Positions 2,774 through 42,973 of a stretch of 42,973 bases of DNA are shown here, piece after piece. This DNA is from Kagunavirus LM08P1. The stretch is from the sequence record OZ035812.1. One strand, 5' to 3'. The number at the start of each line of letters is the position of its first letter. Positions within the stretch are counted from its first letter, which is position 1. The translations under genes and the position numbers were made by a program. The notes beneath the pieces are model-generated. The model was not told the origin of the DNA, did not search any database, and was given only the letters and a program-made list of their open reading frames with translations.

Positions 2774-2804
2774 AAGGCCCCGTTATGGGGCCTTATTTTT
2801 ATTT
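2774..2804. terminator. intrinsic terminator hairpin (bidirectional)
   Basis: GGCCCCG-TTAT-GGGGCC hairpin flanked by A-run upstream and T-run downstream, between convergent portal (+) and 2799..3083 (-). Confidence 0.6.
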
Positions 2805-3083
2805 CTTTCCTAATGCTTTCTTGATTGCTCTGTTGGCCCGATTTAATGGATGGTCTTCATGGCAATCATCAGAAGATACTGCACAAACATCCTCGACGTA
2901 ATCGCGAAGCTGGCGAAGTGCTTCAAGTAACTCGGGTGCCGAGGTGATAAGTTTTGCGTTAGCTAATTTTACGGAGTCCTTTTCCCGCATACTCATTACC
3001 TCGGCCACATAAACGTCCCCCGCCCAGATAGCTGTTCCGTGATTAACCCATGCGCCGTCTGTACCTTTAAATTTGTGTGTCAT
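2799..3083 (-). CDS. hypothetical protein (opposite-strand gene in head module; possibly Ead/Ea22-like, motif APELLEAL recalled from memory)
   Basis: 94 aa ORF on minus strand with RBS AGGAGG upstream of ATG at 3083; own promoter element at 3107..3139; terminator at its 3' end. Confidence 0.55.
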   Translation of the reverse strand: MTHKFKGTDGAWVNHGTAIWAGDVYVAEVMSMREKDSVKLANAKLITSAPELLEALRQLRDYVEDVCAVSSDDCHEDHPLNRANRAIKKALGKK

Positions 3084-4691: not shown

Positions 4692-4720
4692 GAGGCCCCA
4701 TAATGGGGCCTTAGATTTTT
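4692..4720 (+). terminator. intrinsic terminator hairpin
   Basis: GGCCCCA-TAA-TGGGGCC hairpin followed by T-rich run TTAGATTTTT. Confidence 0.55.
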
Positions 4721-5025
4721 CCTATTAGATTTTTAATTCTGTCGCGTTCTATTCTTTTCCCTTCTTCTACTCCCTCATTGAAGTATCTTTCTACATCATC
4801 CTTATTGACCTTACGAACTGCTGCGCCCTCTTTATATAGCTCTTGATTGTCGCGCAATACCTTAATCTTAGCGATTATTTCATTAAAAGGTGCGTCAGCA
4901 CGTATTTTGAGCATAGACCTTACCTGTTCTACGAACCATGCAAAATTAGGCTTTTTTGATAATTTCTCTCTTAAAACAGCGTTCTCTTGTTCCGCTTTTG
5001 TGGCGCGAGCACGATAATCAATCAT
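4711..5025 (-). CDS. hypothetical protein (opposite-strand, AT-rich gene in head module)
   Basis: 104 aa ORF on minus strand, lysine/glutamate rich; ATG at 5025; promoter element at 5063..5095; visibly more AT-rich than flanking structural genes. Confidence 0.55.
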   Translation of the reverse strand: MIDYRARATKAEQENAVLREKLSKKPNFAWFVEQVRSMLKIRADAPFNEIIAKIKVLRDNQELYKEGAAVRKVNKDDVERYFNEGVEEGKRIERDRIKNLIGKI

Positions 5026-5197: not shown

Positions 5198-5397
5198 GAG
5201 CTTGTGAAGTATGAACAAGCGACCGCGGCGCGGGCAGGTAACGGAGCGGGACGTAAGTCCTGAGTGTAGTTACGCTGACGCGTTCGGAAGGGCCATACTC
5301 TATTGCTTGTGTAAAAAGTAACTGGTTTACTGAGATTACGCCGTTTCTATGTTTAAATGATAAGGACTAGCGCCCCGCTTTATGGCGGGGCTTTACT
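5198..5397 (+). ncRNA. candidate structured noncoding RNA / leader element, copy A (unidentified family)
   Basis: About 200 nt between promoter and terminator hairpin (5371..5391 + T-run); shares conserved blocks with copy B (36067..36300) with hairpin-preserving substitutions; no reading frame conserved between copies. Confidence 0.5.
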
Positions 5398-5993: not shown

Positions 5994-6695
5994 ATGAATC
6001 GTTTTTTACGTTATCCGTTCCAGGAAGAAGCTGGAACAGAAGATAAATCCGGTGGCGGTGACGCGCCGAAAATGTTCACCGCTGAAGAAGTTCAGGCGCT
6101 GATTGAGAAAGAAGTTGCCGGGCTTAAGGCTAATCAGGAAGCATTGCTGGCAGAGAAGAAAGAAGCCGCCCGTAAAGCAAAAGAGGCTGAAGAAGAACGG
6201 CAGCGCGCGCACCAGGAGGCATTAAAAGCCGCCGGTAAGATGGACGAGTTCGAAAAAACGATTCGTAGCCAGTATGACCCGGTGTTAGCCGAGAAAGATG
6301 GCCGCATCTCCAGAATGGCGGAGCGCATCCTCGGCAGCGAACGTAAAGCGGTGTTAGGCTCTTTCGCAGGTGATTTCATCACACCGGAAGCAGTAGACAT
6401 TCTTGCTCCGTTCGTTAAGACTGAGTTCGAAGGCGATGACGTGGTTACTAAGTTTGTAGGCGCAGACGGCAATGTAATCACGACTGACCCGGAACAGTTC
6501 CGCAAATACCTGCGGGAACACAAAGCATTTTCGCATTTGATTAAAGCAAATGCAGCTTCCGGCGGCGGGGCTTCCGGTAGCAAAGGCGGCGGGGCCGCAC
6601 CAGCGTTTAAAGACATGAGTGAAGCGGAGCGTTTAGCTCTGTATAAATCGAACCCTGCCGAATTTGAACGGCAACTTAAAGCCCTGAGGAAATAA
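5994..6695 (+). CDS. scaffolding protein
   Basis: ORF frame opens at 5940 (TTG); first ATG at 5994; highly charged K/E/A-rich predicted coiled coil; directly precedes major capsid gene. Confidence 0.55.
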   Translation: MNRFLRYPFQEEAGTEDKSGGGDAPKMFTAEEVQALIEKEVAGLKANQEALLAEKKEAARKAKEAEEERQRAHQEALKAAGKMDEFEKTIRSQYDPVLAEKDGRISRMAERILGSERKAVLGSFAGDFITPEAVDILAPFVKTEFEGDDVVTKFVGADGNVITTDPEQFRKYLREHKAFSHLIKANAASGGGASGSKGGGAAPAFKDMSEAERLALYKSNPAEFERQLKALRK

Positions 6696-6697
6696 TA

Positions 6698-7747
6698 ATG
6701 GCAATTACCACTATCGGCGATATCGTAACTGGCAACATCCCGGTCCTGGCGTCTTATATGACCGAGGACCCGGTAGAAAAAACCGCGTTCTTCCAGTCTG
6801 GTATTCTGACCCCGACTCCATACGCTGCCGAGATTGCCCGCGGCCCGTCCAACGTCGCTAATATTCCTTTCTGGAAAGCGATTGATACTTCTATCGAGCC
6901 TAACTACTCGAACGACGTATACCAGGACATCGCCACCCCGCGTAACGTGCAGACCGGCGAGATGATGGCCCGCGTTGCATACCTGAACGAAGGCTTCGGA
7001 CAGGCGGACCTGACTGTCGAACTGACCAGCCAGAACCCGCTGCAATCCGTAGCGTCCCGTCTGGACAACTTCTGGCAGCGCCAGGCACAACGCCGTCTGA
7101 TTGCTACCGCGCTTGGTCTGTACAACGACAACGTAGCCGCTACCGACGCTTACCACGAGCAGAATGACATGGTAATCGACGTGTCTGCTACTCTGGGCTT
7201 CGATGCGGGCGCGTTCATCGACGCTACCCAGACTATGGGTGATGCGCTGATTGGCAACGGCGGTGAAGTGCTGGGTGCTATCGCGATGCACAGCTTCGTA
7301 TATGCGCAGGCCCGTAAGCAGCAGCTTATTGACTTCATCCGTGACGCTGACAACAACACCATGTTTGCCACCTACCAGGGCTACCGCGTGATTGTTGATG
7401 ACAGCATGACTGTAGTTGGCACCGGCTCAAGCCGTAAGTTCATCTCCATCATCTTCGGTAACGGCGCTATCGGTTACGGTGAAGGTAACCCGTCCAACCC
7501 GCTGGAATACGAGCGCGAAGCGTCTCGCGGTAACGGTGGTGGTGTCGAAACCCTGTGGACCCGTAAGACCTGGTTGCTGCACCCACTGGGCTACAGCTTC
7601 ACCAGCGCGGTAATCACCGGTAACGGCACCGAGACTATCGCACGTTCTGCTTCCTGGCAGGACCTGGCGAACGCCTCCAACTGGAACCGTGTGGTTGAAC
7701 GTAAGCACGTACCGATTGCCTTCCTGGTAACTGGTGTAGGTGCTTAA
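6698..7747 (+). CDS. major capsid protein
   Basis: 349 aa ORF with RBS GAGGAA; follows scaffold; followed by strong terminator; codon usage typical of highly expressed structural gene. Fold not verifiable here. Confidence 0.7.
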   Translation: MAITTIGDIVTGNIPVLASYMTEDPVEKTAFFQSGILTPTPYAAEIARGPSNVANIPFWKAIDTSIEPNYSNDVYQDIATPRNVQTGEMMARVAYLNEGFGQADLTVELTSQNPLQSVASRLDNFWQRQAQRRLIATALGLYNDNVAATDAYHEQNDMVIDVSATLGFDAGAFIDATQTMGDALIGNGGEVLGAIAMHSFVYAQARKQQLIDFIRDADNNTMFATYQGYRVIVDDSMTVVGTGSSRKFISIIFGNGAIGYGEGNPSNPLEYEREASRGNGGGVETLWTRKTWLLHPLGYSFTSAVITGNGTETIARSASWQDLANASNWNRVVERKHVPIAFLVTGVGA

Positions 7748-7763
7748 GGTTAAGCTATAATCG

Positions 7764-7790
7764 AGAGGGACTTCGGTCCCTCTTTTCATT
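7764..7790 (+). terminator. intrinsic terminator
   Basis: GAGGGAC-TTCG-GTCCCTC hairpin followed by TTTTCATTT, 17 nt after capsid stop. Confidence 0.65.
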
Positions 7791-10987: not shown

Positions 10988-12154
10988 ATGGCTACAACTC
11001 CTTTTAAGGGCGCGAATACCGCGCAATTCTATGTGGCGGAAGTCACCCCGGGCGTAACACCGACTAACCCGGTATGGTCGCCGTTGCGTAACACAGGTGG
11101 CGTTCCCGCTATCACCCGCGACACGCTGACATCCAACGAACTGGACGGCAGCCGTGAAACTACATCCATCCGCACCGGTAACAAACAGGTTAGCGGTGAA
11201 TACGCGATCGAGCTTAGCTCTAAAAGCCAGGACGACTGGCTGGCGGGCGCTTTAGGTTCCACGTGGCAATCAGGTGTCTCTCTGTCAGGGCTGTCGATTA
11301 CCGTCGCGCCTGCAGGTAAGACATTTACACGCTCCACCGGTAGCTTTATTTCTGACGGCGTTGAAGTAGGCGACCTGATTGCGTTTACCGACTTAACCGG
11401 CGACAACGCAAAACCATTTATCGTCACTGCGGTAGAGGCACTGGTAGTGACCGGTGCGGGCATCCAGCACACTCTCACCACAGAGACCGCTACTACTGCT
11501 GCTAAGACAGGCGACAAACTGGAAACCGGTAGCCAGTGCAAGACGTTCTCTATTCTCACCTGGTACAAAGGCCAGTGCGGCGGGACTGACGCATACACGT
11601 TAACCAAAGGCGTGGAAGTTTCTGGTTTTACCGTTGAGCAGGCCGTTAACGCGATGGTAACGGGCAGCTTCCCGTTCATCGGGCGCAGCCAGGAGATTCT
11701 CACTACGCCACCGTCTGGTTCTGACTTCTCCTCTGTTACGTTTGGTGACGAGCCGTTCTCCTCGGTCGACGTTTCCGTGTTCGATGGCTCTACGCCGTTG
11801 CGTTGCGACAGCCTGACCATCACCAACGATAACAGCGCGTCCGCACAGTTCGAACTCGGCAACTCTAACGTTGCGTTTGTGGAGCGTAGCCGCGCGGCTA
11901 ACACCTTCTCCATCTCAGGCAAGCTGTATGACATGGCTATGATTCAGAAGTTTATCAACGAGCAGCAGGTAGAGATTAACTCTATTCTGGCGGGGGTAAA
12001 CGGAGCTATGTCTTTCAGCCTGAAACGCGCAGAGCTCACGGCGGTTACACCAGAAATATCCGGCCCGGAATCAATTACCCAAAGTATAGAAGGGCAGTCC
12101 ACAGGCAACCAATACCAGTCGTCTATCGTAATTCAACGTATTAGTTACGCATAA
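10988..12154 (+). CDS. major tail protein
   Basis: ORF frame from 10982 (GTG); ATG at 10988 with RBS AAGAGG; about 389 aa, T/S/G-rich; sits between neck genes and chaperone/tape-measure pair. Confidence 0.6.
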   Translation: MATTPFKGANTAQFYVAEVTPGVTPTNPVWSPLRNTGGVPAITRDTLTSNELDGSRETTSIRTGNKQVSGEYAIELSSKSQDDWLAGALGSTWQSGVSLSGLSITVAPAGKTFTRSTGSFISDGVEVGDLIAFTDLTGDNAKPFIVTAVEALVVTGAGIQHTLTTETATTAAKTGDKLETGSQCKTFSILTWYKGQCGGTDAYTLTKGVEVSGFTVEQAVNAMVTGSFPFIGRSQEILTTPPSGSDFSSVTFGDEPFSSVDVSVFDGSTPLRCDSLTITNDNSASAQFELGNSNVAFVERSRAANTFSISGKLYDMAMIQKFINEQQVEINSILAGVNGAMSFSLKRAELTAVTPEISGPESITQSIEGQSTGNQYQSSIVIQRISYA

Positions 12155-12156
12155 AA

Positions 12157-12184
12157 CTAAGGCCCCTTTCGGGGCCTTTTTCTT
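12157..12184. terminator. bidirectional intrinsic terminator
   Basis: AAGGCCCC-TTTC-GGGGCCTT hairpin with A-run upstream and T-run downstream; separates + major tail gene from - island; almost identical to terminator at 24206. Confidence 0.65.
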
Positions 12185-12413
12185 ACTCATCAATATTGCT
12201 TCGGTATTCCCGTAACTTCTCCAGACTTTCAATTGCTTCCGCTAAGTCGGTTCCGGTGTCCTTGTGTCCGCGCAAGCCCATGCACAATAGCTTCTTCAAT
12301 GCGTGCTGTAGCGCCGGGTCGCGTATATCGAAGGCGCGGAGCACATCATAAACGTCTACTGTCATAGTGCTGCCGTGAGTGTTTGTCATTGTGCGGTTGT
12401 ATTTTGAAGTCAT
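12183..12413 (-). CDS. hypothetical protein (island gene 4)
   Basis: 76 aa; start ATG 12413 overlaps stop of upstream gene (ATGA coupling). Confidence 0.5.
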   Translation of the reverse strand: MTSKYNRTMTNTHGSTMTVDVYDVLRAFDIRDPALQHALKKLLCMGLRGHKDTGTDLAEAIESLEKLREYRSNIDE

Positions 12414-12643
12414 AAATGGCTCTCATCTATAAGAACGATAACTGCCGAAATCGAAACGGCACCTACATATAAAAGACGCATCTCGGTCGGCGCTATAGCG
12501 GTAACAGCTTCGTACAGGCCCGAGAACACGGACAAATCCATAGAGATAAATGTTAAGACCGCCGCCATTCCTAGTACCGCGGTGGATAAAACCAGTAAAA
12601 CCACAACAGGCATTATGGCGAAAATCCACAAGGCTTTAATCAT
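12410..12643 (-). CDS. small membrane protein (two predicted TM helices)
   Basis: 77 aa, two long hydrophobic stretches; start ATG 12643 overlaps stop of metallophosphoesterase gene (ATGA). Confidence 0.5.
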   Translation of the reverse strand: MIKALWIFAIMPVVVLLVLSTAVLGMAAVLTFISMDLSVFSGLYEAVTAIAPTEMRLLYVGAVSISAVIVLIDESHL

Positions 12644-13770
12644 CCCAGCATCTCCGGTGAAATAGTTAAACGTGCGACCTCGCCATATTCGGCGCTATAA
12701 GTAATTACATTTGCGCTACGACCCGACATCCAGCCGCCTCTGGAGGCGTAGGCATCTTTAGCCGCCAGGGTGCGGTGTTGCTCAACAATCATGTTACGGC
12801 TTTCTACAATCTTCTGATGGTGCAGGTGGCCTACGTGGGCGTAACTGTAAACACTCTCGCCGAACGCTTTGCGGAACTTGGCAATCATAACCGGTTCGAT
12901 AGCGTCGAAGCGTGCTTTATGCCCGTGATGGAAGAACAGCGTCGTTTTGCCGTGTTGCACCATCTTGTAAACATCCGGCGACGTATCGACGAACACACGA
13001 GGCTCGTTGTCGTATAGCGTACTGAACATCTCAGCCAACCAAATCATTCCGCTTTCGTCATGATTCCCTTGCACGATAAGCAAGCGAACATTTTTATGCT
13101 TAACAAGGGCCATATCGACAACACGGCGCACCATACGAATCATGTAGCGGACGAGTTTCTGATAGCGGGTGTCAGCGTCAAGAACATGACCGCTTGCCGG
13201 TGTAACGGCGTCCAGACTATCGAAGTGCGCAAGGTCCCCCAGCAGACTAATAACTCCTGTTCCTGCGTCCGGCGCTTTCTGAAACGCCGCGTCGAACCAG
13301 CGTGAGAACAGGTCTTCCGCAATCTTCATATCCCAGTCGTCGCCGCTCTCGTCGGCCCAGGCCAGCATACCGAGATGGAAATCAGATACCGTGTAAAGAT
13401 TGAGTAGCTTGTCGTCACGTTTGGCGCGAACGGCTTTAACAGGTGCAACTGGCGTAATCTCTGACTTCATGCCTTCGATCACGGCTTTCATCAATTCAAC
13501 CTGACGTTCAGCGTCAGTGTCAGTCTTAACCCATTGCAGTTTAGTGTTGCCAAACTCATCGACAAGGGATGACGTTCCTTTAATCTTGTAGCCATCTGGC
13601 ACAAGGTGGCTAACGTCGCGCCCGTGGCCTACACCTTTCTTTGCCAGCTTCGCTTTGCGGATGCGAATAACGCGGTCTGAGATGCCATATTTACGAGCTA
13701 TATCGATAGTTTTAACTCCGGCGTTCAATTCTTCCTGTAACTGTTCGTCGGTTATTTTCTTCCGGGCCAT
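12640..13770 (-). CDS. HTH domain fused to calcineurin-like metallophosphoesterase
   Basis: 376 aa; N-terminal HTH-like segment (TIDIARKYGISDRVIRIRKAKL); metallophosphoesterase signature motifs in order: DFH, GDLAHFD, GNHDE, HHGH, GHLHH; RBS GAGGAAG. Confidence 0.75.
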   Translation of the reverse strand: MARKKITDEQLQEELNAGVKTIDIARKYGISDRVIRIRKAKLAKKGVGHGRDVSHLVPDGYKIKGTSSLVDEFGNTKLQWVKTDTDAERQVELMKAVIEGMKSEITPVAPVKAVRAKRDDKLLNLYTVSDFHLGMLAWADESGDDWDMKIAEDLFSRWFDAAFQKAPDAGTGVISLLGDLAHFDSLDAVTPASGHVLDADTRYQKLVRYMIRMVRRVVDMALVKHKNVRLLIVQGNHDESGMIWLAEMFSTLYDNEPRVFVDTSPDVYKMVQHGKTTLFFHHGHKARFDAIEPVMIAKFRKAFGESVYSYAHVGHLHHQKIVESRNMIVEQHRTLAAKDAYASRGGWMSGRSANVITYSAEYGEVARLTISPEMLG

Positions 13771-13835
13771 GCTTACTTCCTCGTGTTTAGGATTTGTCCT
13801 ATTTAACCACAGTGGATTCCTTTAAATAAAGGCAA

Positions 13836-14162
13836 CTATTTACTTTCTGCGCCTATCGCCCACCCTGTCATTACCATTTGCAGACGGGTGGCTGTCAGCA
13901 GGCTATAGAAAGCATCTCCGTTTTTCTCTACAGAACGTATTACCGTGTATGTTACGGCTTGCGGAGGCAGGCCCGATTTACCAACCTCTACGGCTGCCTC
14001 ACACTCGCGAACGGTAGAGTCCTTAAATGCCTTTACAATAGTAGGGTCGGCTCTATCAAGCACACCAGAAGTCATAAGAACGGATTCACTAAACACCTGT
14101 TCACACGGAGACCCAAAAGTAGCAAAAGACATAAAACCAAGAGCTAACACTAATTTACGCAT
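13836..14162 (-). CDS. secreted/periplasmic hypothetical protein
   Basis: 108 aa with N-terminal signal-peptide-like segment MRKLVLALGFMSFATFG; RBS GAGGAAA; first gene downstream of promoter 14187..14220. Confidence 0.5.
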   Translation of the reverse strand: MRKLVLALGFMSFATFGSPCEQVFSESVLMTSGVLDRADPTIVKAFKDSTVRECEAAVEVGKSGLPPQAVTYTVIRSVEKNGDAFYSLLTATRLQMVMTGWAIGAESK

Positions 14163-14743: not shown

Positions 14744-15105
14744 AAGCGCTGTATGAATTTGCGCAATGGTGCTTTGTCGACCGCCACAAACGTAAGCAAT
14801 TCGACGACATCGCGGCGGGCCACCAGGCGGCTTTGATTGCAATGGGCGTGATTAAAGAACCGCAGATGAAAGAAGCGACGGGGCCGGAATGCCCCGTTTC
14901 TCTTATCGACGTGTTCGAGAAATACCGTGCCATTAAATTCCTACAGCGCGAAACAGATGATACTATCGTTATAATCCCGCGCGATGCGCTCAAATGGCAA
15001 GATTTGGTAGCGTTTCGTGATGTCGCCGGTTACGGCATAAGTTTGTTCGAAGCCGAGGTTATCATGGGCTTAGACGGAATATTTGAGGGCAGAGAAGATG
15101 GCTGA
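14725..15105 (+). CDS. tail assembly chaperone frameshift extension (T-like segment, -1 frame)
   Basis: Open frame from 14725 to stop at 15103..15105 in the -1 frame relative to 14327..14743; overlap contains GGAAAAG (14734..14740), resembling known slippery heptamers; ends overlapping tape measure start. Confidence 0.4.
   Translation, partial: ETLGKVKALYEFAQWCFVDRHKRKQFDDIAAGHQAALIAMGVIKEPQMKEATGPECPVSLIDVFEKYRAIKFLQRETDDTIVIIPRDALKWQDLVAFRDVAGYGISLFEAEVIMGLDGIFEGREDG
14734..14740 (+). other. candidate -1 programmed ribosomal frameshift slippery site (G GAA AAG)
   Basis: Located in last codons of chaperone ORF where the -1 frame is open; not a canonical X XXY YYZ heptamer, so tentative. 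Confidence 0.3.
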
Positions 15106-17410: not shown

Positions 17411-18802
17411 ATGAGTGATTTGAGATTCCCTATGTCCCTTCGACCTATAGTGTCGAAGGGGTACTCCCAGACCAGGGGGAGTAATATCTGGCGCACCGAG
17501 GTTCAGGGTGGCTTACCCCGCCAGGGGCGAGACACGTACTTCGAACCGGTGCCGATTAGCGTGACGCTCGTCGTATCGTCTCTCGGTCGTCAGGCGTTTT
17601 ATAGCTTCCTGAACAACATCGACGGCGGGGCGTCCTCGTTTATCATGCCCCATGATACGGGTATGGGCATCGAGGACCACCAGGTGCTCATCACCTCTAC
17701 GATTAGTGACAGCACCGACGACGGTAAGAACTGGGTAATCTCGTTCACAGCAACAGCAGAACGCACAGCAATTCAGGAAGACACTTGCCTTACTAAGAAT
17801 CTGCCAGATTTGTATGGTTGTTTTGGGGATTGTCTGGGTAGTTTCCTGAAAATATACGCGAACTATCAGACGACGTTCCCGCGCATCTGGAGCAATGAAG
17901 GACCTGCAGGTTACCCACCGATTAACCTTCTGGCGTCGACTCTTGATAGCCGCATTGTTTACGATGGTCCGCAGGTTTATTACATCAACCGAAACGGCAA
18001 TCTTGTGCAGTCCGCCACCAATGAATGGCCTCTTACGTTTATCGATGGGGTTGCTGTTGGGCGTGTGCCGCCGGAGTTGATGGGGGTGAATAGGGTTCTC
18101 TATTCGAGCGATATCATATCTTCTCCTTGGGTAAAAGTACGGACCGACGTAACGCTTGCTCCGGGTTATCTGACGTCTGACAATACCTTCAAATTAACAC
18201 CAACCATCGTAAATGGGGCACATTACATACAACAAAGTATAGAGGGAGAGTTTGGTGAAGATGAATTTTACACGTTCAGTTGTTTTGCCAAATCTGACGG
18301 TTACAAATACGCAAGACTACGTGCGGCTGATGGCGCCGGTTTCATATCTGACGTCGTAGTTAATTTGGAAACTGGAGACATCTATTCCGGGCAACAGAAT
18401 AGCCTAGTAACATATATCGGTGGTGGGTGGTTCAGATTTACGGAACTGATTGTCGTGCGTGGAAACGGGGCAAATAAGCTAGATATCACCATTGGGGTTA
18501 ATGATAATTCAACCCAACTAACGTATCCCGGCGACGGTTCAAGTGGGATACTCGTATCATCACCTCAAATAGAAAAATCAGAATTTGCCACTTCGCCAAT
18601 AGTAACCGATGCGTCACCGGTAACCCGACACTCGGCATCGGCAAAAGTAACCATGAACGGCGCGACAAGCATCGACATTACCTATTCCGACGGCACTGTG
18701 GTAAACGTTCCATCTGTAGATGATTACGCGACTATCCCCCAAGCGGATTCTGCGTGGGGTAGTAAATATATCACCCGTATTGATTTTAATGTGGACGGTT
18801 AA
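17411..18802 (+). CDS. minor tail / distal tail protein (putative)
   Basis: 463 aa directly after tape measure; positional inference. Confidence 0.5.
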   Translation: MSDLRFPMSLRPIVSKGYSQTRGSNIWRTEVQGGLPRQGRDTYFEPVPISVTLVVSSLGRQAFYSFLNNIDGGASSFIMPHDTGMGIEDHQVLITSTISDSTDDGKNWVISFTATAERTAIQEDTCLTKNLPDLYGCFGDCLGSFLKIYANYQTTFPRIWSNEGPAGYPPINLLASTLDSRIVYDGPQVYYINRNGNLVQSATNEWPLTFIDGVAVGRVPPELMGVNRVLYSSDIISSPWVKVRTDVTLAPGYLTSDNTFKLTPTIVNGAHYIQQSIEGEFGEDEFYTFSCFAKSDGYKYARLRAADGAGFISDVVVNLETGDIYSGQQNSLVTYIGGGWFRFTELIVVRGNGANKLDITIGVNDNSTQLTYPGDGSSGILVSSPQIEKSEFATSPIVTDASPVTRHSASAKVTMNGATSIDITYSDGTVVNVPSVDDYATIPQADSAWGSKYITRIDFNVDG

Positions 18803-18805
18803 CTT

Positions 18806-19321
18806 ATGAGCCAGGAATCAGTAGAAGCAGCCTATCGCCGTAAACTGGCCTCCAACCCGGACGGCGAAATTGACTACACGACGCTGGAGATAGTGCATCC
18901 GCTTCTTTCGAAGCGGTATTTACTTGTGCGCGGAACTTCTGACCTGACGGCAACGTTAGAGACCGGAGAAGTAGTTACGTTTGAGGCCACACCAATGGAG
19001 GCTAAAGGGGCCGCCAACAATAATGATATGGACCAGCGGGCATCATTCGCACTACCCGACATCGGCAACCAGTTAGACGATGAGATGGATAGGATACCCC
19101 CCGATAATACCGTGTTGCCTAAGTTTATATTCCGCCGTTTTGTTAGTACCGATTTGTCTTATCCGGCGGATGGGCCAGTTGTATACGAGTTGCAGTCGAT
19201 AAACCAGGAAAAGGGGGTATTCACAGCTGACGTCGGCGTCCCTATGTTGAACCAAAGAGCCACCGGTGAACTAATGACCCCTTCGGTAATCCCATTGTTG
19301 CGTGGTGTTTTGTCTACATGA
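18806..19321 (+). CDS. minor tail protein (putative)
   Basis: 171 aa; tail-tip module position. Confidence 0.45.
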   Translation: MSQESVEAAYRRKLASNPDGEIDYTTLEIVHPLLSKRYLLVRGTSDLTATLETGEVVTFEATPMEAKGAANNNDMDQRASFALPDIGNQLDDEMDRIPPDNTVLPKFIFRRFVSTDLSYPADGPVVYELQSINQEKGVFTADVGVPMLNQRATGELMTPSVIPLLRGVLST

Positions 19322-24205: not shown

Positions 24206-24232
24206 CTAAGGCCCCATTTGGGGCCTTTTCTC
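24206..24232. terminator. bidirectional intrinsic terminator
   Basis: AAGGCCCC-ATTT-GGGGCCTT hairpin with T-run; lies between convergent tail (+) and replication (-) blocks. Confidence 0.65.
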
Positions 24233-26819: not shown

Positions 26820-26951
26820 TCATTCCAGCACCCACAGATAAATTGCGATGAACATACCTAATACGGCTACAATCATGCCGTATTGGCCCTCGTGACAGTA
26901 GACACCGGCGGCAAATCCCGCCAGTACTGCGATAATCAGTTTACTTAGCAT
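26820..26951 (-). CDS. small hydrophobic protein (43 aa)
   Basis: Manual ORF; ATG 26951 overlapping polymerase stop; sequence MLSKLIIAVLAGFAAGVYCHEGQYGMIVAVLGMFIAIYLWVLE. Confidence 0.3.
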   Translation of the reverse strand: MLSKLIIAVLAGFAAGVYCHEGQYGMIVAVLGMFIAIYLWVLE

Positions 26952-29214
26952 AACGGTACACCTCTTCCCCAGCCCATGTTAACGGGAACCCTTCGGCCCA
27001 CTCAGGTAATGAGCATAGCAGGTCACCCATCTCTTTAACCGTGTACTCTGGCGTGTCTGGCGTTTCGGCAACACATTCGTCATGTACGTGGAGTACAATT
27101 GGGTAGCCCGCCGCCTCGACCGTCAGGAGTCCGTTAACCAGTAAATCACGGCACAACGCCTGGATGATGTTTTCACACAATTTTCCGCCGTGGGTGTACA
27201 AAGTTGTCCACTGGCGGGTGGTCTGATTTTCACCCTGATACTTAATGCGGACGTTAGTAGTAACGCGCCCATCCTCGTCAGTCTCTTTAGTGACGCTTAA
27301 GCCTATGCCAGGGTAGGACATGATGCGCCCAGACGGCAGTTCCACGCACAACCACCAACCCGGAACCGGATTACCGTGGTTGTCTTTTTCTTTGGTACGC
27401 CAGATGCGGATGGCTCTGTCGCCGTTAAGGCGTACTCGGGCCCCTGCCCAAAACTCTCGTCCCGGATTTCTGATGGCGGCTATCACCGAATCCTTAAGGT
27501 CATTCCAGAATTTCACTGTTTCCGGATGGGCTTCCCGCCACATGCGCTTAATGGCGTCACAGGTGCGCCAGACTTCTTTAGGCAGCACATAAGAGGCCCG
27601 TTCATCTTTTTTACCAGGCTTTGGCGGGCGTTTAGCCTCCTGAATTCTGGCCCATTCGTAGCCACGGGCGGTAGCCGCCCAAATGTGGTCGGGGAACGTG
27701 CCCCGCATTGTCTCTGTCATTTTAAAGAGGTCCAGCCCGTAAGTTTTAGCCATAGTCATAAAAGCCCCTACGCCCCCCTCGTAGCCGAGGCCGAGTTCGC
27801 AACATTTCCCGACCTGACGTAGGTCCTTACGGGTGGCTTTTAGTTCTACGGGATCCATGCCAAACATCTTGCCCGCGGTGGCGCAATAAATATCAATCCC
27901 TGCGCGGAAGGTCTCAAGCGCGGATGTCTCCCCCGCGGTCCAGGCCAACCCGCGCCCTTCTACGTTTGAGTAGTCGGCAACGAGCAACTTATTACCTTTT
28001 TCCGGGATGATGCAACTGCGAACAGTCGAGGCTGTCAGCTTGGACACATCGAAACGGCGATGCGCCCGGCCCTTTAAAAGCAAATTGATGCCAAATGATA
28101 GCGGGTTAAGCCTGCGGTTCCAGTCTTCGTCGGACTCCCACGGCTGGCGCACAAGTTTCTTTTCCTCGTTAGTCGGGTCGTCGTGGTAGTACCCGCGCGA
28201 CAGGTTCTGCGGTTGGAACCCTTTACCCGCAAATCGTAAAGTGCGCTTTGCCCCACCGTACTGGATGCAACCGCGGCGGCGGCCGTCTTTGGACCGTCCT
28301 AGCAGGAGCGGTTTGTATTTTGTCGACGCCGTGGAGGCCGCGCCGAGGCGCATCTCAATGATTGTGCGCGCATCGTCAGGTAAGTCGTCGTCCTCTAGCA
28401 AACCTTCGAGCGTTGCTTTCTGTGCATTATAGATATTGTAGGCCGGTGCCAGCTCCCGAAGGATTGGCAGGAAGTCTTTACCCGTTAGCTTGCCGCCAAA
28501 TTTAGCCCTGGCCTCGTTTTTTAGCTCTTGCTTGTGGCGTTCAACTGCTGCTACCGCCGCCTCAGCAAGAGCCGCATCAACAAAGAAGCCTCGGTCGTTG
28601 ATTAACTGGTCAAGTTCAAGTACACGGTCCTCGAAATCGGAGTTACCCCAACGTGGCAGCTTATGGAAGACTTCACGCATCGCTGTGATGTCGCTCACGG
28701 CATACTTGATGAACAGGGCCCACTCGTCAGGGTGAGTTTCTGCGGTGTAGCGGCGGATTTTGTAGTTCTTCGGCGTCGGTTTAGAGAAACGCTTAATCAG
28801 CGCCTTGCCGCGTTTATCTTTTGCATTGTCGGCGGATACGCCCAGCACTTCGCACAATGCGTCAAGTGACCCCGGCAGCGCGTGACGAAACGCCCAAATC
28901 ATCGTATCAATGGTGTTGCTTACCGGAATATCAAAGTCCCAGCAGTGCTTCATGACGAGCCTGTCGAACATTGAGCCGTTGTGCCACACCATCTTAATAC
29001 GACTGTTTGGCTTAACCAGGCGGCGCAAGGCGCGGTGCAAATCGCCCGGCATGTCGCTGCCGTCGGTGCAGTCCCATACCTGCACAGGCTCGTCGTCAAA
29101 AGCATATGCGCAGATGAGCACTTCGGTAGTTGGGTGTTCTGCGTAAGCGTAGGAACCGACTTTCTTCAAATCGGCTTCGGAGAAGGTTTCAAAGTCTAAG
29201 AACAGATAACTCAT
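26941..29214 (-). CDS. DNA polymerase I-type (family A) with N-terminal 3'-5' exonuclease domain
   Basis: 757 aa; N-terminal DnaQ-like Exo I motif FLDFETFS; polymerase motif A-like DYSNVEGR and motif C-like VLHVHDE. Confidence 0.9.
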   Translation of the reverse strand: MSYLFLDFETFSEADLKKVGSYAYAEHPTTEVLICAYAFDDEPVQVWDCTDGSDMPGDLHRALRRLVKPNSRIKMVWHNGSMFDRLVMKHCWDFDIPVSNTIDTMIWAFRHALPGSLDALCEVLGVSADNAKDKRGKALIKRFSKPTPKNYKIRRYTAETHPDEWALFIKYAVSDITAMREVFHKLPRWGNSDFEDRVLELDQLINDRGFFVDAALAEAAVAAVERHKQELKNEARAKFGGKLTGKDFLPILRELAPAYNIYNAQKATLEGLLEDDDLPDDARTIIEMRLGAASTASTKYKPLLLGRSKDGRRRGCIQYGGAKRTLRFAGKGFQPQNLSRGYYHDDPTNEEKKLVRQPWESDEDWNRRLNPLSFGINLLLKGRAHRRFDVSKLTASTVRSCIIPEKGNKLLVADYSNVEGRGLAWTAGETSALETFRAGIDIYCATAGKMFGMDPVELKATRKDLRQVGKCCELGLGYEGGVGAFMTMAKTYGLDLFKMTETMRGTFPDHIWAATARGYEWARIQEAKRPPKPGKKDERASYVLPKEVWRTCDAIKRMWREAHPETVKFWNDLKDSVIAAIRNPGREFWAGARVRLNGDRAIRIWRTKEKDNHGNPVPGWWLCVELPSGRIMSYPGIGLSVTKETDEDGRVTTNVRIKYQGENQTTRQWTTLYTHGGKLCENIIQALCRDLLVNGLLTVEAAGYPIVLHVHDECVAETPDTPEYTVKEMGDLLCSLPEWAEGFPLTWAGEEVYRYAK

Positions 29215-37131: not shown

Positions 37132-37275
37132 ATGAGAGAAGCATTCGAACGGTGGGCCGTCGTCGAGGGTCTGCCGGTTAACAAGGGTTCGAAGAAAGAG
37201 TACCTGAACGTTAAGACGCGTCTCGCGTGGCGGGCGTGGAAAGCTGGTGTGTTGTTTATCGCGAATCGGAGGTGA
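37132..37275 (+). CDS. small hypothetical protein (47 aa)
   Basis: Manual ORF; RBS GAGGA; stop overlaps RBS/start of next gene. Confidence 0.4.
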   Translation: MREAFERWAVVEGLPVNKGSKKEYLNVKTRLAWRAWKAGVLFIANRR

Positions 37276-41948: not shown

Positions 41949-42241
41949 GTGAGATGAAACCTTGCAGATGTTGTGGCATTAAACAAAGCCCGGTTGATGA
42001 AAAGAACGCTGAATACGAAACACTCGTCAGCTTAGTGCTTCAATGTGGTGATGAGAAGCAATTATTGACTCTTATCGACATTATGCGGTCCAAGATAACA
42101 ACCTGTGTATCGTCGTCTGACCCTAACAAACTGCCGTACCCTGATAAAGAGTTGTGGCACGTACGAATCATGGCTGATGCTGTTATGATTTTGCAGGATA
42201 AGTTATTAACCCGTAGTATGCGAAAGGAGGGCGGGGAATGA
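41945..42241 (+). CDS. hypothetical protein
   Basis: 98 aa; RBS GAGGAGAGTGGGG; N-terminal CRCCG cysteine cluster. Confidence 0.5.
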   Translation: MSEMKPCRCCGIKQSPVDEKNAEYETLVSLVLQCGDEKQLLTLIDIMRSKITTCVSSSDPNKLPYPDKELWHVRIMADAVMILQDKLLTRSMRKEGGE

Positions 42242-42339
42242 GACTACTAATCATCCCCAACGCATGGGCTATCGCCGTAGCTAACGACCATTACGGCGGC
42301 GATGGTAAAAGAGCACCACGACACGGCCTATATAACTGA
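42238..42339 (+). CDS. very small hypothetical protein (33 aa)
   Basis: Manual ORF after GGAGGG; followed by terminator. Confidence 0.3.
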   Translation: MRLLIIPNAWAIAVANDHYGGDGKRAPRHGLYN

Positions 42340-42344
42340 TACAA

Positions 42345-42367
42345 GCCCTCTACGGAGGGCTTTTCTG
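42345..42367 (+). terminator. intrinsic terminator
   Basis: GCCCTC-TACG-GAGGGC hairpin followed by TTTTCTG. Confidence 0.6.
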
Positions 42368-42460
42368 TACATCCCGCCCAATCCCCTTATATAATCCCTT
42401 TAGACGCGTAGGGCGCGTCTGGTGCGCTCTGATGGTCAGACGCATATGCAAGGGGATTCT

Positions 42461-42973
42461 ATGAAGCTGAAACTCAAGCAGCCATCGCCAGAGGTGGTGC
42501 AAGCCGCGCATGAAGAGGCTGTTAGTGCCAACCGTCGCCGTAAACGGCCACGCGGCAAACAGAGCCTTTACCAGTCATCCCGTAATTCTGCGGCATTGTG
42601 GGACCCGGACTATTGTGACGAACTGATTCGTTTCTTTGACCGCAACTCGTGGGAACTTGTGCCCACGTCCAAGGGTGATGAACGTCCTCTTATTCAGGAT
42701 AAGCCCCCGTCACTGGCCCGCTTCGCCTTACACATCGGCGTCACTATCCCTATTATTAAGCTTTGGCTGCGTGAGATTCCCGCATTTGCAGAAGCCTGGG
42801 AGACAGCACAGGCGCTGGAAGAGGCATACTTCACTGAGACAGGGGCTGCGGGCATCTCGGCTACGTTTGCCGCGGCTAAACTGGGCCTCAGCAAAGAGAA
42901 ACCGGTTGCATCCACCGAAGAACCAGCACCGACTGAGATTGTTTTCAGTGTTGCGGAGCCTGTAGGTAAAATC
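42461..42973 (+). CDS. terminase small subunit (3' end runs off window; frame continues at 1..33)
   Basis: ATG 42461 with RBS AAGGGGA; 171 codons without stop to window end; HTH-like segment SLARFALHIGVTIPIIKLWLREIPAFAEAWE typical of small terminase DNA-binding domains; not in ORF track because no stop inside window. Confidence 0.7.
   Translation, partial: MKLKLKQPSPEVVQAAHEEAVSANRRRKRPRGKQSLYQSSRNSAALWDPDYCDELIRFFDRNSWELVPTSKGDERPLIQDKPPSLARFALHIGVTIPIIKLWLREIPAFAEAWETAQALEEAYFTETGAAGISATFAAAKLGLSKEKPVASTEEPAPTEIVFSVAEPVGKI

Follow-up and report, generated by a model that had tools for sequence, protein, structure and literature searches.

The split small terminase gene of Kagunavirus LM08P1 and the predicted two-hairpin leader upstream of it

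The headful phages P22 and Sf6 carry their packaging site, pac, inside the gene for the small terminase subunit (terS). In SPP1 the packaging region, pacL-pacC-pacR, is arranged around the start of gene 1. At the level of RNA, the leader of the Escherichia coli ompA messenger (mRNA) bears a stem-loop at its 5' terminus that acts as a stabilizer. The putL element of phage HK022 comprises two stem-loops just downstream of PL and acts over >10 kb (PMC9378689). These systems are the background for the terS locus of the E. coli phage Kagunavirus LM08P1 (sequence record OZ035812.1), of which the whole stretch of 42,973 nucleotides (nt), referred to here as the window, was analysed. The window divides terS between its two ends, with the first 171 codons at 42461-42973 on the plus strand and the remainder at 1-33, and the gene is preceded by a predicted terminator, a predicted promoter and a leader of two hairpins. 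The split gene is the ordinary result of linearizing a complete, circularly closing phage genome and is routine. The leader RNA is the only element of some novelty.

The split terS gene and its junction

The frame that opens with the ATG at 42461-42463 runs through 171 codons without a stop to the last base of the window; by arithmetic, the chance of such a stop-free run is ~(61/64)^171 = 3e-4. Bases 1-33 (GTA ACA ACG AAC ATG GGT GAG GTA GAG GAA TGA) continue the frame in phase, supplying codons 172-181 and a TGA at 31-33. When the ends are joined, the gene is complete at 546 nt and 182 codons, that is 181 amino acids (aa) and a stop, and this is also the length of its intact homologues. A preliminary description of the window had anticipated the open frame, its in-phase continuation to the TGA and the 182 codons of the joined gene, together with the overlap between the stop codon and the start of the gene for the large terminase subunit, terL. 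The latter extends from 30 to 1280 on the plus strand (Pfam Terminase_6N 1.7e-21, Terminase_6C 4.4e-11; terminase large subunit in PHROG). Its ATG at 30-32 overlaps the terS stop in the sequence ATGA, an arrangement found in all relatives, and terS is translationally coupled in this way to a T4-type terL.

The joined frame is undisrupted in relatives, the alignment to related phage genomes being contiguous and free of indels at the junction. At least 41 GenBank phage records match, in one piece across the junction, a 1400-nt query in which the start of the window was appended to its end. The C-terminus of TerS (...VGKIVTTNMGEVEE) and its length of 181 aa are identical in the uninterrupted gene of ULINTec2 and in 32 other loci. 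Eight independently assembled metagenome or Logan contigs with an identical TerL carry an open reading frame (ORF) of 181-194 aa with the same 4-nt overlap and align in register over the junction, one of them (L012) gap-free over 2018 nt. In the alignment to EF2-1, window positions 42973|1 correspond to EF2-1 positions 11075|11076.

The same picture is obtained from the genome as a whole. The window maps collinearly once around EF2-1 and across EF2-1's own ends, the latter genome having been opened elsewhere. With a genome-wide nucleotide similarity to members of at least 70% and a gene order in common with them, it falls within Kagunavirus, a genus in the Guernseyvirinae subfamily, and represents a 43-kb E. 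coli phage; the phage is a lytic siphovirus. Gene order and a size of 41-45 kb are shared with LM08P2 (OZ035738.1), AV104 (OR352935.1), hz69 (ON556632.1), EF2-1 (PQ571290.1) and the prototype K1G. The nearest record is LM08P2, with 96.6% identity over 97% of window positions 1-25000 and ~95.7% identity over 93% of the remainder, and no record identical to the window was found in the phage collection searched. The gene complement is full, with terminases, portal, head morphogenesis, major head, tail, tape measure and tailspike genes as well as helicases, DNA polymerase, primase-helicase, endolysin and others.

Taken together, the observations are best explained if the window is a complete unit-length Kagunavirus genome that has been linearized at an arbitrary point in terS. 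This is very probably the case, and it is what the preliminary description had suspected. There is no terminal redundancy in the window, the first and last 10- to 20-mers being unique. We infer that the assembly is circular, or closes into a circle, and that it was cut 29 nt upstream of the terL start and 33 nt before the end of terS. It has to be set against this reading that neither the closing of this assembly into a circle nor the mode of packaging was observed, both being deduced. For practical purposes, the genome is best treated as circular when genes are called, since a linear treatment loses terS or truncates it.

The assignment of the ORF as a small terminase, also made in the preliminary description, is upheld by its protein family, its predicted fold and its position before terL. 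The joined TerS matches PHROG family phrog_3064 ('terminase', head and packaging) with E 3.9e-72. It has no match in Pfam at E<=0.1, whether to GP3_package or to Sf6_terminase (PF20901), and direct sequence searches of the Protein Data Bank (PDB) gave no useful match. Remote relatives proved more informative. An exhaustive profile search with TerS collected at least 500 of them; 8 of the 10 that were tested match Pfam GP3_package (PF16677) with E<=3e-4, two of them above the gathering score. The four best matches of the TerS family profile in the PDB are all Sf6 gp1 (E 0.008-0.03). A first AlphaFold2 (AF2) model made from 17 close homologues was unusable, with a predicted local distance difference test score (pLDDT) of 50, and a model made from an alignment of 100 sequences reached a pLDDT of 82. 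In a Foldseek search the five best PDB matches of the latter model are chains of the P22 gp3 nonamer (3P9A; probability 0.96-0.99). The predicted monomer fold thus resembles the solved structures of gp3 and gp1, and the gene lies directly upstream of that for the large terminase and is coupled with it. The structure and profile scores are modest yet consistent, and an HHpred note at 99% in the GenBank record of phage Shashou agrees with a TerS of the P22/Sf6 type. On the basis of the predicted model and the family profiles, the joined ORF is accepted as a putative small terminase of the P22 gp3/Sf6 gp1 type.

The control region and the two-hairpin leader

The layout of the 120-nt region upstream of terS was derived from an alignment of 42 distinct sequences. 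All of its elements are on the plus strand. The predicted sigma70-like promoter, PterS (42366-42395), consists of TGTACA placed 18 nt upstream of TATAAT (42390-42395) and agrees with the consensus at 10 of 12 positions; the combination TGTACA-18-TATAAT occurs once in the window against an expectation of 0.02. Both hexamers are invariant and the spacer between them differs between Kagunavirus and Jerseyvirus, so the hexamers, with a spacing inside the 16-18 nt range, are conserved independently of the spacer as would be expected of a sigma70 promoter. In distant relatives, with a TerS identity of 56-64%, a TAYAAT stands at the same distance from the first hairpin of the leader, the -35 hexamer being weak in the most distant relatives.

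The leader is ~60 nt long, and its first 45 nt are predicted to form two abutting hairpins that are followed by an unpaired Shine-Dalgarno site. Hairpin 1 (AGACGCG...CGCGTCT, 42401-42421) is predicted by minimum free energy folding and RNAalifold, starts at approximately the predicted +1 and has the arms of its inverted repeat at 42402-42408 and 42414-42420. Hairpin 2 (42422-42445), predicted by RNAalifold and single-sequence folding, has a stem of 10 bp with a single bulge and a loop of UGG. The Shine-Dalgarno-like AAGGGGA (42450-42456), located 4 nt before the ATG at 42461, is unpaired in all folds and corresponds to a conserved purine-rich block in relatives. The preliminary description had pointed to the TATAAT, the inverted repeat and a second AGACGC (42438-42443, within hairpin 2), and all three are present. 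Its suggestion of a repeated AGACGC did not survive in the sense of a repeat family: one copy forms the 5' arm of hairpin 1, the other the 3' arm of hairpin 2, and the genome as a whole shows no excess of the heptamer AGACGCG (10 copies, where 8.2 would be expected). At 37214-37223 the heptamer of hairpin 1 is part of a perfect 10-bp palindrome, AGACGCGTCT.

Both hairpins are maintained by evolution as paired structures. Hairpin 1 shows 100% pairing in the 42 sequences, with every one-sided change yielding a G.U pair, and compensatory changes appear in distant relatives. Compensatory changes affect 8 of the 10 pairs of hairpin 2, and 11 diverse sequences keep the G-C and A-U pairs by which its (U/C)GG loop is closed. 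Five Logan contigs in which TerS is 53-57% identical keep the order of terminator, TAYAAT, two hairpins and Shine-Dalgarno site with different stem sequences. In the alignment of the 11 diverse sequences, 11 of 16 pairs are compensatory and 95.5% of cells pair, compared with 75.7% in shuffles and 24-53% in slid controls, and none of 500 shuffles reached the observed value on any measure. G.U pairs outnumber A.C mismatches by 115:1 in the 42-sequence alignment and by 18:2 in the 11-sequence alignment, and this excess points to a constraint acting on plus-strand, single-stranded RNA rather than on a palindrome in duplex DNA. The hairpins have no match in Rfam and the element is single-copy in the genome. 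A 16-mer scan of IMG/VR for the core of hairpin 2 returned mostly the same contigs and some probable chance matches, and scans of JGI metagenomes and IMG/VR recovered no more divergent relatives of TerS. We regard the two-hairpin leader as a conserved and undescribed RNA motif of modest interest.

Two other pairings were noted in this region. An alternative pairing between GCGTCTG and CAGACGC (42415-42421 and 42437-42443) is broken in Jerseyvirus and was dropped for hairpin 2. The -10 box and the bases following it (ATATAATCCCTTT, 42389-42401) are complementary to the Shine-Dalgarno/AUG region (AAGGGGATTCTAT, 42450-42462), with a second span of complementarity between 42380-42393 and 42445-42458. 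For this -10/Shine-Dalgarno pairing 89.9% of cells pair and two pairs are compensatory, values that barely exceed the shuffle control; as judged by eye, the pairing is kept in contigs L145, L148 and L149 and not in L144 or L146. It could form only on transcripts that read through the upstream terminator, and would then occlude the ribosome-binding site of terS.

The upstream terminator (42343-42364) is a G+C-rich hairpin formed by a perfect 8-bp inverted repeat, AAGCCCTC-TACG-GAGGGCTT, and followed by a T run at the end of a gene. It is predicted to be an intrinsic terminator that ends the upstream block of small ORFs. Its hairpin (42343-42362) contains a compensatory change from U-A to G-C and shows 99% pairing in the 42 sequences. 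It is also present in distant relatives, and its Rfam matches are weak ones only, to the terminator ends of small RNAs. The last gene before the terminator is a 33-codon ORF (42238-42339) that overlaps the stop of the preceding gene (ATGA) and is annotated or called in hz69 and L011. The sequence just upstream of the hairpin (~42326-42343; L013, L024 and L006) exists in several unrelated variants that become alike from the hairpin onward, which marks the terminator as a boundary of mosaic recombination.

The leader stands at the head of a late operon of ~24 kb that extends on the plus strand from terS to the tailspike gene. Strong terminator-like hairpins lie between the late structural genes at 2774-2794, 4692-4712, 5372-5391, 7763-7784, 12159-12178 and 14877-14898, with further ones at 18899-18916 (weaker) and 24208-24227, all on the plus strand, and most of them recur at homologous positions in EF2-1, LM08P2 and LM02P1. 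No extra copy of the PterS motif or of the leader was found in the window, the late operon included, and near-consensus sigma70 promoters were found only on the minus-strand replication genes. Conserved terminators in an operon without a second copy of its promoter would be reconciled if the leader were an antitermination element, a role that is possible and is put forward tentatively by analogy with known phage systems. Hairpin 1, at the 5' end of the transcript, would protect the mRNA; its location within a couple of bases of +1 and its freedom to vary in sequence fit a protective stem-loop at the 5' terminus. Hairpin 2, whose loop and closing pairs are kept across all relatives in a manner that suggests specific recognition, would serve through its (U/C)GG loop as an element for recognition that influences, in cis, how the 24-kb operon is expressed. 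Most likely it would do so by allowing RNA polymerase to read through the intrinsic terminators of the late operon. A narrower proposal, and a more doubtful one, is that the leader is a previously undescribed cis-acting RNA that makes host RNA polymerase resistant to termination, either alone, like put, or together with a phage factor, like nut. If this were true, one late promoter would serve the whole packaging, head and tail operon of the Guernseyvirinae despite six or seven terminators.

A number of points weigh against this account of the leader. Partial read-through or unrecognized internal promoters could serve the late genes in place of the antitermination that is proposed. The element is also shorter than HK022 put. 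The start of transcription is predicted from the consensus only. The sample in which covariation was assessed is small, with 11 diverse sequences of which five are truly divergent. The z-score of the leader fold, at -2.0, is modest for the plus strand, and that for the minus strand, at -3.3, is the stronger of the two, so that the assignment to a strand rests on the asymmetry between G.U and A.C. No literature linking the Guernseyvirinae with antitermination was found.

The hairpins may instead only stabilize the mRNA, as the ompA leader does, or tune translation of terS, with no part in elongation. This is a serious possibility, short of being a probable one. In all relatives hairpin 1 starts ~0-2 nt from the predicted +1 and its sequence and loop vary, as would be expected of a generic stabilizer, and the complementarity of the -10 region to the Shine-Dalgarno/AUG region hints at translational control of read-through transcripts. 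What stabilization would leave unexplained is the conservation, in hairpin 2, of the (U/C)GG loop and of the pairs that close it, as well as the passage of polymerase over the conserved terminators of the late operon.

It is unlikely that the inverted repeats at 42401-42445 act as duplex DNA, whether as a pac or TerS-binding site or as the operator of a repressor. They do adjoin terS in a strongly conserved block, hairpin 1 overlaps the predicted +1, which is a typical position for an operator, and SPP1 provides a precedent with pacL upstream of gene 1. However, the substitutions keep pairing and not sequence, with the bias towards G.U described above, the stems of distant relatives are entirely different in sequence with the fold kept, and the heptamer is not a repeated genomic motif. 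A role as DNA in addition to the role as RNA is possible. The preliminary description had proposed a packaging or regulatory site in the upstream region; the regulatory part of this proposal holds, in the form of the terminator, promoter and leader, and nothing supports the placing of pac there.

Less likely again is that terS starts with the in-frame GTG of 42422 and encodes a protein of 194 aa, which would make the region of hairpin 2 coding sequence rather than leader. The frame is indeed open from 42422, and this start is used by several gene callers and GenBank records (EM1, 1NRH, sam, Shashou and P0001). However, Kagunavirus and Jerseyvirus disagree at 6 of the 13 additional residues, compared with ~7% divergence in the next 145 residues, and the changes in nucleotide sequence show no concentration at third positions. 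The codon at 42422 is ATG in 15 of the 42 relatives, and the alternation between GTG and ATG matches exactly the alternation between a G.U and an A-U pair in hairpin 2. Furthermore, the Shine-Dalgarno site precedes the ATG at 42461 and not 42422, and it is the hairpin, not the peptide, that is conserved in distant relatives. A version of TerS of 186 aa, from the ATG at 42446, has also been called (L013). The ATG at 42461 is preferred over the GTG at 42422 for annotation.

The ends of the record and the mode of packaging

The position of the break within terS is explained by the history of the record. LM08P2 starts and ends at bases homologous to those of the window, and other records of the same European Nucleotide Archive (ENA) series (OZ0357xx/OZ0358xx) end, within one base, at the homologue of its last base. 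LM02P1, from the same series, has an unrelated allele of the terS tail and terL, and its terL ATG nevertheless stands at base 30 too, from which it follows that the start was set by the terL annotation and not by a site in the DNA. The paper describing the collection reports Nextera libraries assembled as single SPAdes contigs and does not mention PhageTerm or termini; tagmentation libraries do not recover DNA ends. Other groups open these genomes at the equivalent of 42422, the start of the long form of terS (Jersey and others). The ends of the window are a bookkeeping choice or database convention, not a physical end, and they are uninformative about packaging.

That the ends are nevertheless those of virion DNA, left by pac cleavage inside terS or marking there a cos site or the boundary of a direct terminal repeat, is highly improbable. 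P22 and Sf6, whose small terminases resemble this one, have pac inside terS, and several ENA records have exactly this start. Such an origin is contradicted by the terL ATG at base 30 of LM02P1 with its unrelated allele, by the inability of the tagmentation libraries used for the collection to recover ends, by the lack of a repeat at the ends of the window and by the practice of other laboratories, which start their records elsewhere by stated convention. GenBank starts that cluster at 42410 and 42422, in or beside hairpin 1, were suspected of being a pac terminus assigned by PhageTerm, and this was rejected. Finally, it is scarcely credible that the window represents part of some longer molecule such as a prophage or larger contig with an in-phase continuation arising by coincidence, a formal possibility raised in the preliminary description for which no support was found: the junction is contiguous and in register across many independent assemblies, the window maps once round the whole EF2-1 genome, no contig with exactly this TerL is larger than 50 kb (0 of 69 index blocks), which argues against a prophage or larger replicon, and relatives are described as strictly lytic.

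By analogy with its relatives, the phage probably packages DNA by the headful (pac) mechanism, and its virion DNA would then be terminally redundant and circularly permuted. Four Kagunavirus phages whose sequences came from sheared libraries (Shashou, Sciku, Snoke and Schulenberg) are predicted by PhageTerm to use headful/pac packaging. The Jerseyvirus K47 was likewise scored as headful by PhageTerm and has a circular-type restriction map and a broad band in pulsed-field gel electrophoresis, and fBC-Eco01 has no detectable termini. Published trees of TerL place the K1G-like and Jersey-like proteins near headful packagers. TerL of the window is a protein of the T4-like type, composed of Terminase_6N/6C, with no sequence match in the PDB. 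As headful virion DNA is permuted and redundant, assembly yields a circle in which the choice of a start is arbitrary, and the window does close into a circle without fixed ends, its joined ends being contiguous and in register in relatives. The site of pac itself is, on the model of P22 and Sf6, more likely to be inside terS than upstream of it. A scan of synonymous-site diversity along terS for an embedded pac detected no convincing constrained stretch, the shallow minimum at codons 16-30 having a diversity of 0.19-0.22 against a mean of 0.32.

The cut made in the record falls inside a cassette formed by the end of terS and the whole of terL. Across 64 loci, TerS residues 1-142 are nearly invariant, and the last ~38 residues (from ~42887 to 42973, continuing through 1-30, the 10 codons with which the window opens) exist in four unrelated versions that are perfectly linked to four unrelated alleles of TerL. 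The boundaries of the exchange can be seen in hz69 and AV104, which are 98% identical to the window up to 42888 and divergent from there until ~1268, at the end of terL; LM02P1 also differs from the window in this cassette, and phage Jersey carries the same type of tail and TerL as the window. The linkage between tail type and TerL allele marks a probable region of contact between the two subunits, and from sequence the tail is probably the TerL-binding segment of TerS. Such a region would be useful for engineering chimeric packaging modules. A second variable patch of TerS, at residues ~66-80 (42656-42700), reads ELVPT-SKGDERPLIQ as opposed to EAMPTGAHGDMKAVIA and others. It coincides with a beta-hairpin predicted to be inserted in the helical domain, the core being otherwise invariant.

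Other features and comparison with known systems

Several features of the window lie apart from terS and its leader. The portal gene occupies 1293-2768. Some of the hairpins of the late operon are bidirectional and flank small minus-strand genes at 2799-3083, 4711-5025 and 12183-14162. Minus-strand promoters with 11 of 12 matches to the consensus, TTGACA followed after 17-18 nt by TATAGT or TATATT, are found at 32845-32816, 29987-29959 and 26335-26307 before blocks of replication genes and are probably early promoters. The ORF at 17411-18802 encodes 463 aa with no match in Pfam, its counterpart in EF2-1 being a tail protein of 157 aa, and 17890-18806 has no counterpart in EF2-1; a tail gene may carry an insertion or an additional domain here. 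The gene for DNA polymerase A (26941-29214, minus strand) encodes 757 aa as compared with 723 aa in EF2-1. Its residues ~468-563 match the PHROG 'endonuclease' family phrog_93, and the DNA of this segment, especially 27795-28178, does not align with EF2-1; the polymerase may thus contain an inserted endonuclease-like, or otherwise variable, segment. Long minus-strand ORFs at 6134-7291 (385 codons, opposite the scaffold and major-head genes) and 11029-11934 (301 codons, opposite the major-tail gene) are probably spurious. Across the whole genome there are no tRNA genes and no Rfam families at the gathering threshold.

The analysis provides the first evidence-based map of the control region of a late operon, comprising terminator, promoter and covarying leader, in a widely isolated group of phages relevant to therapy. 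The map also gives a testable hypothesis for the means by which transcription passes the internal terminators in phages of the Guernseyvirinae.

How the locus relates to described systems depends on the element considered. The small terminase is closest to P22 gp3 and Sf6 gp1 (PF16677; PDB 3P9A, 3HEF), proteins of headful phages whose genes, as in the window, lie directly before terL. A helix-turn-helix-like core and the motif ...W...P.F..A.e.A are common to these proteins and to TerS of the window, and the model of the latter has in addition a basic N-terminal segment (~1-45) and the beta-hairpin insert, at residues 64-78. SPP1, in which the packaging signal lies beside or overlaps the promoter region of terS, is a model for the packaging site suggested in the preliminary description. 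The window differs from SPP1 in that the pattern of substitution upstream of terS indicates constraint at the level of RNA and not of DNA.

The leader, as predicted, resembles HK022 putL in its position, the two abutting stem-loops following directly on the promoter that heads a long operon with terminators in it (PMC9378689). It is shorter, at ~45 nt as against ~70 nt, and its near-perfect stems are without the bulges and the triplex of put. It also differs in context, belonging to the late operon of a lytic siphovirus whereas put belongs to the early operons of a lambdoid phage. The leader therefore has two predicted stem-loops just downstream of a promoter, and has neither bulged stems of put size nor a triplex, and no resemblance in sequence to putL and putR was found, or tested for; being a shorter and simpler element that matches no Rfam family, it is not filed as put. 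It resembles the ompA leader in that its extreme 5' end forms a stable hairpin and another hairpin precedes an unpaired ribosome-binding site, and it differs from that leader in the conserved loop of hairpin 2, which suggests specific recognition.

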